This document shows positions 17,749 through 18,030 of a stretch of DNA of 62,661 nucleotides, piece by piece. How positions within the stretch are numbered: the stretch's first letter is position 1; each line of letters begins with the position of its first letter. This DNA comes from Planctomycetota bacterium (GTDB taxonomy: Bacteria > Planctomycetota > MHYJ01 > JACQXL01), in NCBI GenBank assembly GCA_038059695.1, contig JBBTIZ010000004.1:1-62661 (forward strand), given 5' to 3'. The translations under genes and the position numbers were made by a program. Under the pieces are notes generated by a model. It worked only from the letters and a program-made list of their open reading frames with translations, made no database searches and was not told where the DNA came from.

Positions 17749-18030
17749 GCTTATGGACTCTCTGACAAATGCTTAACCCTTGTAACACAAGGACTTAAGG
17801 TCTCTAACGCACCGGCTTACCGCCTGTAACGCAACCGCTTGACCTCTCCAACGCAAATGCTTAACCTCCGCAACATAAGCGCTTAACCCCCGTAACACAG
17901 GCGCTTAACCTCCGCAACATAGATGCTTGACCTCCGCAACATAAGGACTTGACCTTTCCAACACAGGCGCTTAGCCCCGGCAACATAAGAACTTATGGTC
18001 TGTGACACAGGCGCTTGCCATCCGGTTTGC
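17749..18030. repeat. Degenerate tandem array, 13 units of exactly 22 bp
   Basis: (G/A)CTT recurs at 17749, 17771, 17793, 17815, 17837, 17859, 17881, 17903, 17925, 17947, 17969, 17991, 18013; consensus about RCTTRACCYCYGYAACAYARRN. Confidence 0.9.

Follow-up and report, generated by a model that had tools for sequence, protein, structure and literature searches.

A dispersed element with a phased 22-bp repeat array between a Type III restriction-modification operon and a LexA-like operon in a groundwater Planctomycetota genome

Layout of the locus

The window, a 62,661-nucleotide stretch of DNA from a Planctomycetota bacterium, belongs to a 1.27-Mb MAG that is 55% complete and for which the gene calls are crude ORF picks. 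Within it, the interval 6643-22550 between a glgC-like nucleotidyltransferase gene (5407-6642) and lon (22550-25147) is a hypervariable hot spot, which measures 16 kb in the window and 83 bp in the related genome G005. At the same hot spot, G001 carries 10 kb with a multicopy cassette, a 22-bp array of another family, an AbiE toxin-antitoxin pair and a RhuM gene, and the congener G002 carries yet another array family, 450 bp from lon. In the window, the hot spot holds a Type III restriction-modification (R-M) operon on the forward strand (12869-17631), consisting of mod (12869-14914) and res (14920-17631). This is followed by the repeat array studied here and by a five-gene operon that begins with a LexA-like gene at 18181 and ends at 22325. 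An NTP_transf_8 nucleotidyltransferase gene that overlaps a small upstream ORF lies in the same hot spot (8050-9070), and the two genes are probably a toxin-antitoxin or abortive-infection pair.

The array occupies 17749-18034 on the forward strand. Read head-to-tail in steps of 22 bp from 17749, the sequence gave 13 units ending at base 18034 with zero indels, and Tandem Repeats Finder (TRF) likewise returned a period of 22 (also 44 and 66) with 0% indels. The unit consensus is GCTTAACCTCYGYAACAYAAGC. Positions C2, T3, T4 and A19 are invariant in 13/13 units, (A/G)AC stands at unit positions 14-16 in 11/13, and the inner units are less degenerate than the edge units. The units diverge from one another by about 30%, yet their phase is kept without indels. 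Self-identity at lag 22 was 0.63, compared with a maximum of 0.39 among 2000 mononucleotide shuffles scored by their highest self-identity at any lag from 5 to 59. No 44-bp or 66-bp super-period was found in the array (self-identity 0.63, 0.65 and 0.63 at lags 22, 44 and 66), and lags 9-11 gave background values (0.19-0.27) without one-turn spacing. Any ORF that crosses the array is at most 49 aa long. An earlier note on this DNA, written from the letters alone, had described 13 indel-free and heavily diverged 22-bp units between the Type III res gene and the LexA-like operon, with an invariant CTT, an (A/G)AC ten bases later in most units and no spanning ORF; all of these observations were confirmed. 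A CRISPR array, with its identical repeats of 24-48 bp and unique spacers of similar length, was considered and rejected, as the units here abut at 22 bp and vary along their whole length, and there are no cas genes.

The first gene to the right of the array (18181-18756, forward strand) encodes an HTH_17 domain of the excisionase/MAD1 type and a LexA-like Peptidase_S24 domain, as annotated with Pfam, PADLOC and NCBIfam, and is referred to here as HTH-S24. The remaining genes of its operon are PDC-M30A-like, radical-SAM/DUF5131-like, sigma70_r4-like and a Ser/Thr kinase gene (mad6 / PD-T4-6-like). The operon as a whole (18181-22325) resembles a defence system under SOS or cleavage control and is a candidate for one, and in G002 only its first gene, HTH-S24, appears conserved. 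The operon promoter (18080-18120, forward strand) contains TTGACA-17-TATATT at 18080-18108, matching at 11/12 positions in a promoter scan. Three 10-bp direct repeats, ACTATAATAT, ACTATATTAT and CCTATAGATA (18089-18120; TRF period 10), overlap its -10 box, and a TTGACA with three CTATA-type 10-bp repeats also precedes the orthologues in G002 and G013. This layout fits binding by domains of the Xis/BldC/Apl type, and the 10-bp repeats are the likelier operator of HTH-S24. We rejected a LexA/CI-type SOS operator, as the repeats in both array and promoter are direct, not palindromic or inverted, and the array lies outside the promoter, stopping 46 bp before the -35 box.

A dispersed element and a genome-wide class of arrays

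The array forms the core of a non-coding element of about 370 bp that consists of a G-rich leader, the array and a TTTGCA trailer. The leader (17686-17748, forward strand) starts 55 bp after the R-M operon with the G tract GGGGGGTAGGTAGGGTGG, continues with TAGATACCACCTTCTTTGGTCACTGATATGGACTG, and ends in 22 bases that form a degenerate 'zeroth' unit. Its 60-nt sequence, GGGGGGTAGGTAGGGTGGTAGATACCGGCTACCTYGGTCGCCGATATGGACTG, is nearly invariant, with 48 columns invariant in six copies drawn from different genera and a metagenome. Homology among copies starts sharply at the G tract, and the DNA upstream of it is unrelated. The trailer (18013-18056, forward strand) comprises the last degenerate unit, which overlaps the last unit of the array, and GGTTTGCAAAGGCCCGGGGTTACACCTAAAATC; the block TTTGCA(R)(R)AG..GGR.TYACC..AAA is kept at the 3' end of copies in G008, G009 and G007. 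The right-hand boundary was placed at ~18056 because homology to the HTH-S24 gene module of G002 begins there, just past the trailer. Given the conserved leader and trailer around the array, the element in the window therefore spans ~17686-18056. It is flanked by short A/T runs that other copies do not share.

At least 17 copies of this array family were found in relatives and groundwater metagenomes. They lie in G002, G005 (three copies), G007, G008 (three copies), G009, G014 and G015 and on six groundwater metagenome contigs; none was found outside the order. Every copy has about 11-14 units in exact 22-bp phase, and the leader and trailer are kept between genera, with different genes around them. 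The other copies show no synteny with the window copy, and their neighbours are mostly housekeeping genes such as enolase, ybeY, an SHMT-GcvT fusion and a NifS-like gene. No consistent downstream gene or orientation was found for the family, about half of the copies being co-oriented and half convergent with the next gene. The segment 17686-18056 is one copy of a dispersed element and not a feature of the locus.

One explanation for the array is that the HTH-S24 protein coats the 13 units and thereby regulates either the operon that encodes it or the Type III R-M genes. The array element ends 125 bp upstream of the HTH-S24 gene, the HTH_17 domain of the protein belongs to the Xis/BldC type, which binds direct repeats, and 3/3 strong HTH_17 genes of the MAG have an upstream 22-bp array. 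However, no 21/22-bp array was found within 1.5 kb of the HTH-S24 orthologues in G002 (84% identity), G013 and G008, and the homology to G002 starts only past the trailer. A tblastn search with all HTH_17 proteins and all proteins carrying the array-linked C-terminal domain described below found neither type of gene near 14 further copies of the array family, which were searched together with their flanks. The HTH-S24 protein itself does not have this C-terminal domain, and its gene has repeats of its own over the -10 box that are conserved in G002 and G013. We consider control by HTH-S24 very unlikely. The array does not appear to regulate the HTH-S24 operon, and the adjacency is best read as a coincidence in a crowded hot spot. 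The repressor sink listed in the earlier note is thus not supported, given the three orthologues without an array, the 14 copies without an HTH_17 gene and the separate promoter repeats.

The array might instead work as RNA, either as a repeat RNA that acts as a sponge for proteins or RNAs or as the precursor of ~22-nt guide-like RNAs. Transcription of satellites of this type has been proposed, and reported for Bacillus coagulans (PMC8161180, PMC8625621), the conserved leader and trailer might act as promoters or as signals for processing, and most units carry CCUCC on the + strand and GGAGG on the - strand. On the other hand, folds of 17680-18060 were no better than those of shuffled sequences (z of +0.58 and +0.43 for the two strands), no Rfam match reached the gathering score or E<=1, and no promoter-like site was found upstream of the leader on either strand. 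Moreover, the orientation of the copies relative to neighbouring genes is inconsistent, and unit sequences differ completely between arrays, the DNA helical period being kept instead. A role as RNA is, in our estimate, quite unlikely. A Rho-utilisation terminator, which would be C-rich and G-poor, was also tried and rejected: the window copy is C-rich on the res strand, and over 32 read-through situations the C-G skew had a mean of 0.03 and was positive in 17.

TRF applied to the whole MAG identified 54 arrays with a period of 21 or 22, which fall into about 40 unrelated unit families and make up ~0.9% of the sequence (~11 kb). All arrays of period 22 are intergenic and lie between tandem, divergent and convergent gene pairs; many adjoin housekeeping genes (recG, carA, mnmG, lysS, larC), and many arrays lie at contig ends. 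The earlier note had named similar intergenic arrays occurring at random with a variable period as evidence that would speak against a phased binding array. Arrays proved to be very common, and this objection fails because their period is fixed (32 of 22 bp, 22 of 21 bp, other non-coding periods being rare). It is very probable that the array at 17749-18034 belongs to this dispersed genome-wide class. Fifty 22-bp arrays, from the MAG together with 18 from relatives, fell into 41 unit families. The core ATAT[AC]CC[CG] is common to most of these families (7.25 bits vs 5.2-5.8 in shuffles), and the family of the window array (CTTRACC...CAACA) fits this core poorly.

A second array lies in the window at 44262-44481 (forward strand), with ten 22-bp units and the core ATACCCTAT, and is unrelated to the 13-unit array. 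Its core is constant and the 13-bp remainder alternates between G-rich and C-rich, giving a 44-bp super-period, and it ends in an inverted core (ATAGGGT). An Eco57I/MmeI-type methylase gene 320 bp downstream opens a low-GC island (45-50 kb). The 22 arrays of period 21 in the MAG form a separate class, often with two to four arrays of different units in series. Many 21-bp units contain a 5-6-bp hairpin, and some of these arrays directly adjoin a 22-bp array. Examples are C17:16697-17198, C37:4651-5275, C40:19890-20304 and C69:49935-50273, as well as G008:C65:1-877; one further 21-bp array, C43:6792-6987, falls within an ORF of 1130 aa and is possibly coding. Most 22-bp arrays adjoin G-rich or C-rich tracts of the type GGGG(G)TAGGGTAGGGGG (e.g. 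C25:1900-1960, the C19:5200 region and C73:5480-5510). These tracts resemble dense short-period copies of the shared TACCC core, and many of them form GGGGG..N..CCCCC hairpins.

The dispersal of the arrays could reflect a selfish or neutral minisatellite that spread within the lineage with a fixed 21/22-bp step, by a recombinase or by replication slippage, and that has no cellular function. The greater degeneracy of edge units relative to inner units is as predicted by concerted evolution, the different array families at the same hot spot in congeners point to fast turnover, and the family is multicopy and non-syntenic, with many arrays at contig ends. The array-linked HTH_17 proteins described below could themselves be part of such a spreading mechanism. 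Against this, different genera and families of the order share the unit sequence, the copy number of ~11-14 and the 60-nt leader, there are zero indels at ~30% unit divergence, and a core is shared across ~40 unit families. Taken together, these features indicate purifying selection, and we regard a functionless minisatellite as unlikely.

The setting in the hot spot raises the possibility of a recombination landing pad, at which defence islands dock and for which Xis-like proteins serve as recombination directionality or architectural factors. Arrays are present in the hypervariable interval between core genes, beside R-M, AbiE and RhuM cargo, and HTH_17 has the excisionase fold. In the MAG, 5/6 loci homologous to the R-M genes of the window have a 22-bp array within 2.2 kb, against a chance estimate of ~25%. 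The earlier note had proposed to examine co-occurrence with R-M or LexA-like genes; the R-M loci show this enrichment, and the LexA-like orthologues are without arrays. However, no integrase or transposase was found among the Pfam-scanned ORFs of the window (1-25147 and 33908-52146), the window array lies mid-way in the inserted 16 kb and not at its borders, and there are copies that abut only housekeeping genes. The arrays accompany variable, defence-rich DNA but are not stable orthologous landing pads, because the resident array family differs between congeners. We consider a landing-pad function improbable.

A candidate partner protein family

A family of array-linked proteins was identified that combines one to three HTH_17 domains (Xis/BldC-type) with a conserved C-terminal domain of ~105 aa, characterised by the motif FFRPEVLxKYRKD...YY..E.A..G..G...E..Y.KV.L..G...Y..LP.EE..HW; some members also have an IS1595-type zinc ribbon. 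Members are encoded in the MAG (C25:1331-1849 and C11:39612-40091, the former coding for 172 aa) and in relatives (L043-L072), with two to nine genes per genome. No Pfam or NCBIfam model was found for the C-domain, and a Foldseek search with an AF2 model (pLDDT 78) gave no credible PDB match beyond the N-terminal winged helix-turn-helix (wHTH). In this predicted structure, the N-domain superposes on Pukovnik Xis, BldC, RacA and RdfS.

The genes of this family are often preceded by an array. In the MAG, a 22-bp array precedes each of the three strong HTH_17 genes by 120-330 bp, and in G001, G004, G005 and G012 an upstream 22-bp array is present at 13/22 HTH_17 gene loci. When the genes were divided by the presence of the C-domain, a 22-bp array was found 100-330 bp upstream of 14/17 HTH_17-C-domain genes vs 1/8 other HTH_17 genes, the single exception being HTH-S24 of the window. 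The chance expectation from array density is ~8% within +/-1.5 kb. On the coding strand, the order at family genes is array, G tract, short 10-12-bp TTTG-type repeats, promoter and gene, which differs from the order of G tract, array and trailer in the window element. Protein similarity and unit similarity showed weak co-variation (Mantel r 0.19, p about 0.045). There are roughly ten times as many arrays as C-domain genes.

The proteins and the arrays also co-occur across genomes. Among 301 sampled Planctomycetota genomes, the C-domain family was present in six, and the array pattern TAYMCC-N16-TAYMCC-N16-TAYMCC was present in exactly those six, with 9-137 matches per genome; in the rest of the sample there was one match, of low complexity. 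The C-domain family was absent from the ~290 sampled Planctomycetota genomes outside the order. Within the order, 11 of 16 genomes have both the C-domain family and the array pattern and the same five have neither; among these five is G003, which falls inside the array-rich family. This perfect phyletic match could stem from as few as one or two gain or loss events within one clade. Since the arrays occur only where the HTH_17-C-domain family occurs, they are therefore most likely protein-coating platforms rather than control sites for neighbouring genes. The general suggestion of the earlier note, that the array is coated by protein, thus gains support from the co-occurrence of arrays with a wHTH family both in position and phyletically, while its specific candidates do not.

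Plasmid iterons (R6K, pPS10, pSC101 type) and centromere arrays (parC of R1/pSK41, tubC) consist of phased direct repeats of ~20-22 or 10-12 bp and are cooperatively coated by a small DNA-binding protein, which is often encoded just downstream and autoregulated. The C-domain genes resemble such cassettes in their array, promoter repeats and gene order. In contrast to iterons and centromeres, the arrays described here are chromosomal, number dozens per genome and come without an initiator or NTPase motor, and the window copy is without a cognate gene. The window array could represent the iterons or the centromere of a plasmid or ICE that has integrated, or it could serve the Type III enzyme as a decoy or as a sink for methylation: 22-bp direct repeats are of classical iteron size, the array starts 118 bp after res, and arrays are enriched near R-M loci. 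Yet no Rep, ParA, ParM or TubZ gene was found among the window genes scanned, more than 50 arrays are present per half genome, and some copies have no R-M neighbour. In addition, the C-domain and array families are absent from plasmid, phage and IMG/VR collections: PLSDB and INPHARED gave generic HTH matches only, and the array pattern is absent from IMG/VR. We therefore consider all of these readings highly improbable. A plasmid iteron origin was rejected, the neighbours being Type III Res and HTH-S24 with no Rep and the MAG containing 54 arrays in 1.27 Mb; a partition centromere (parC/parS/tubC) was rejected as well, the downstream operon having no pair of a ParA/ParM/TubZ NTPase gene and a centromere-binding gene. 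The origin and the partition site proposed in the earlier note are not supported, given the missing Rep and Par genes nearby and the number of arrays in half a genome. Its restriction-site decoy is not supported either, given copies of the same family beside housekeeping genes without R-M, yet arrays in general are enriched in the MAG, at 5/6 R-M loci.

Proposed role and relation to known systems

The phased arrays are putative binding platforms for the HTH_17-C-domain family, a proposal to which we give about an even chance. The element in the window is an 'orphan' copy of a class of 22-bp satellites that fills intergenic DNA in one Candidatus Brocadiia-type order of groundwater Planctomycetota. 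On such platforms, HTH_17-C-domain proteins could polymerise head-to-tail, one register every two helical turns, and the product would be a stiff or bent nucleoprotein filament of about 280 bp. Any binder would have to act in trans, because none of the 14 further copies adjoins a C-domain gene, and the orphan copy at 17686-18056 would be bound in trans by a family member. The purpose would most likely be architectural: in variable hot spots rich in defence genes, the filament might, for example, form a domain boundary, act as an insulator or nucleate silencing. Our preferred guess is that it has an architectural function, or insulates, at variable segments.

BldC offers a precedent for this mode of binding. 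It multimerises cooperatively and head-to-tail on direct repeats, the number of which varies, and distorts the DNA (PMC5859096); its repeats are 9 bp long (AATTXXXXC), with two to four per site (PMC5859096). The array-linked proteins are predicted to share their winged-helix fold with BldC, Xis and RdfS, and the three 10-bp repeats in the HTH-S24 promoter fit this mode. Unlike in BldC, the units here are 22 bp long with 10-19 per array, and the proteins have an extra C-domain and up to three HTH_17 domains. The spacing of BldC/Xis operators (9-11-bp direct repeats) is not found in the array and is found in the repeats at 18089-18120.

The arrays themselves most closely recall the non-coding bacterial 'satellites' of constant size (20-23 nt) and variable sequence described by Subirana and Messeguer (PMC6749651; PMC8161180). 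Such repeats occur in individual species of many groups, with several families of the same length and different sequence per genome (PMC8161180, PMC6749651). As to their role, the authors guess at small RNAs or at a protein whose polymerisation on DNA depends on repeats of constant size (PMC8161180). In the survey by these authors, more than four arrays per Mb was already rare (PMC6749651); a J Bacteriol 2020 survey by Subirana and Messeguer is cited as ref. 3 in their later paper. The arrays described here are likewise non-coding, intergenic and dispersed, with one length and many unrelated families. The window array in particular has a non-coding unit within 20-23 nt, a length shared without shared sequence, and a lineage-specific family, and is a member of the constant-size satellite phenomenon in a new phylum. 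Unlike the satellites described previously, these arrays are from Planctomycetota, reach ~42 per Mb under the TRF criteria used here, have a conserved G-rich leader and trailer and a hot-spot setting, and come with a candidate partner protein that can be named from adjacency and co-occurrence. The element also resembles BOX, REP and MITE sequences in being a multicopy, sharply bounded, non-coding sequence at non-syntenic intergenic sites. In contrast to these, its core is a long tandem array of fixed helical period and not a palindrome, and no terminal inverted repeats or target-site duplications were seen in it.

Constant-size satellites have been catalogued since 2019-2021 without a function or a binding partner being found. 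The lineage studied here is an unusually clean test case, with dense arrays, conserved caps and defence hot spots, and with a lineage-restricted Xis/BldC-like family that is encoded behind many arrays and in exactly the array-bearing genomes. This turns a puzzle into a direct experiment, namely whether the family polymerises on 22-bp arrays and with what effect on neighbouring genes. It also carries a warning for annotation, in that such arrays should not be taken as origins, partition sites or operators of the genes they adjoin. The 21/22-bp arrays and the HTH_17-C-domain proteins could, more tentatively, constitute an undescribed chromatin-like system in which dozens of G-rich-capped arrays, diverse in sequence but helically phased, are coated by paralogues and mark or insulate the borders of variable, defence-rich segments. 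If true, this would provide the first cognate protein for constant-size bacterial satellites, and orphan copies such as the one in the window would be sites bound in trans.
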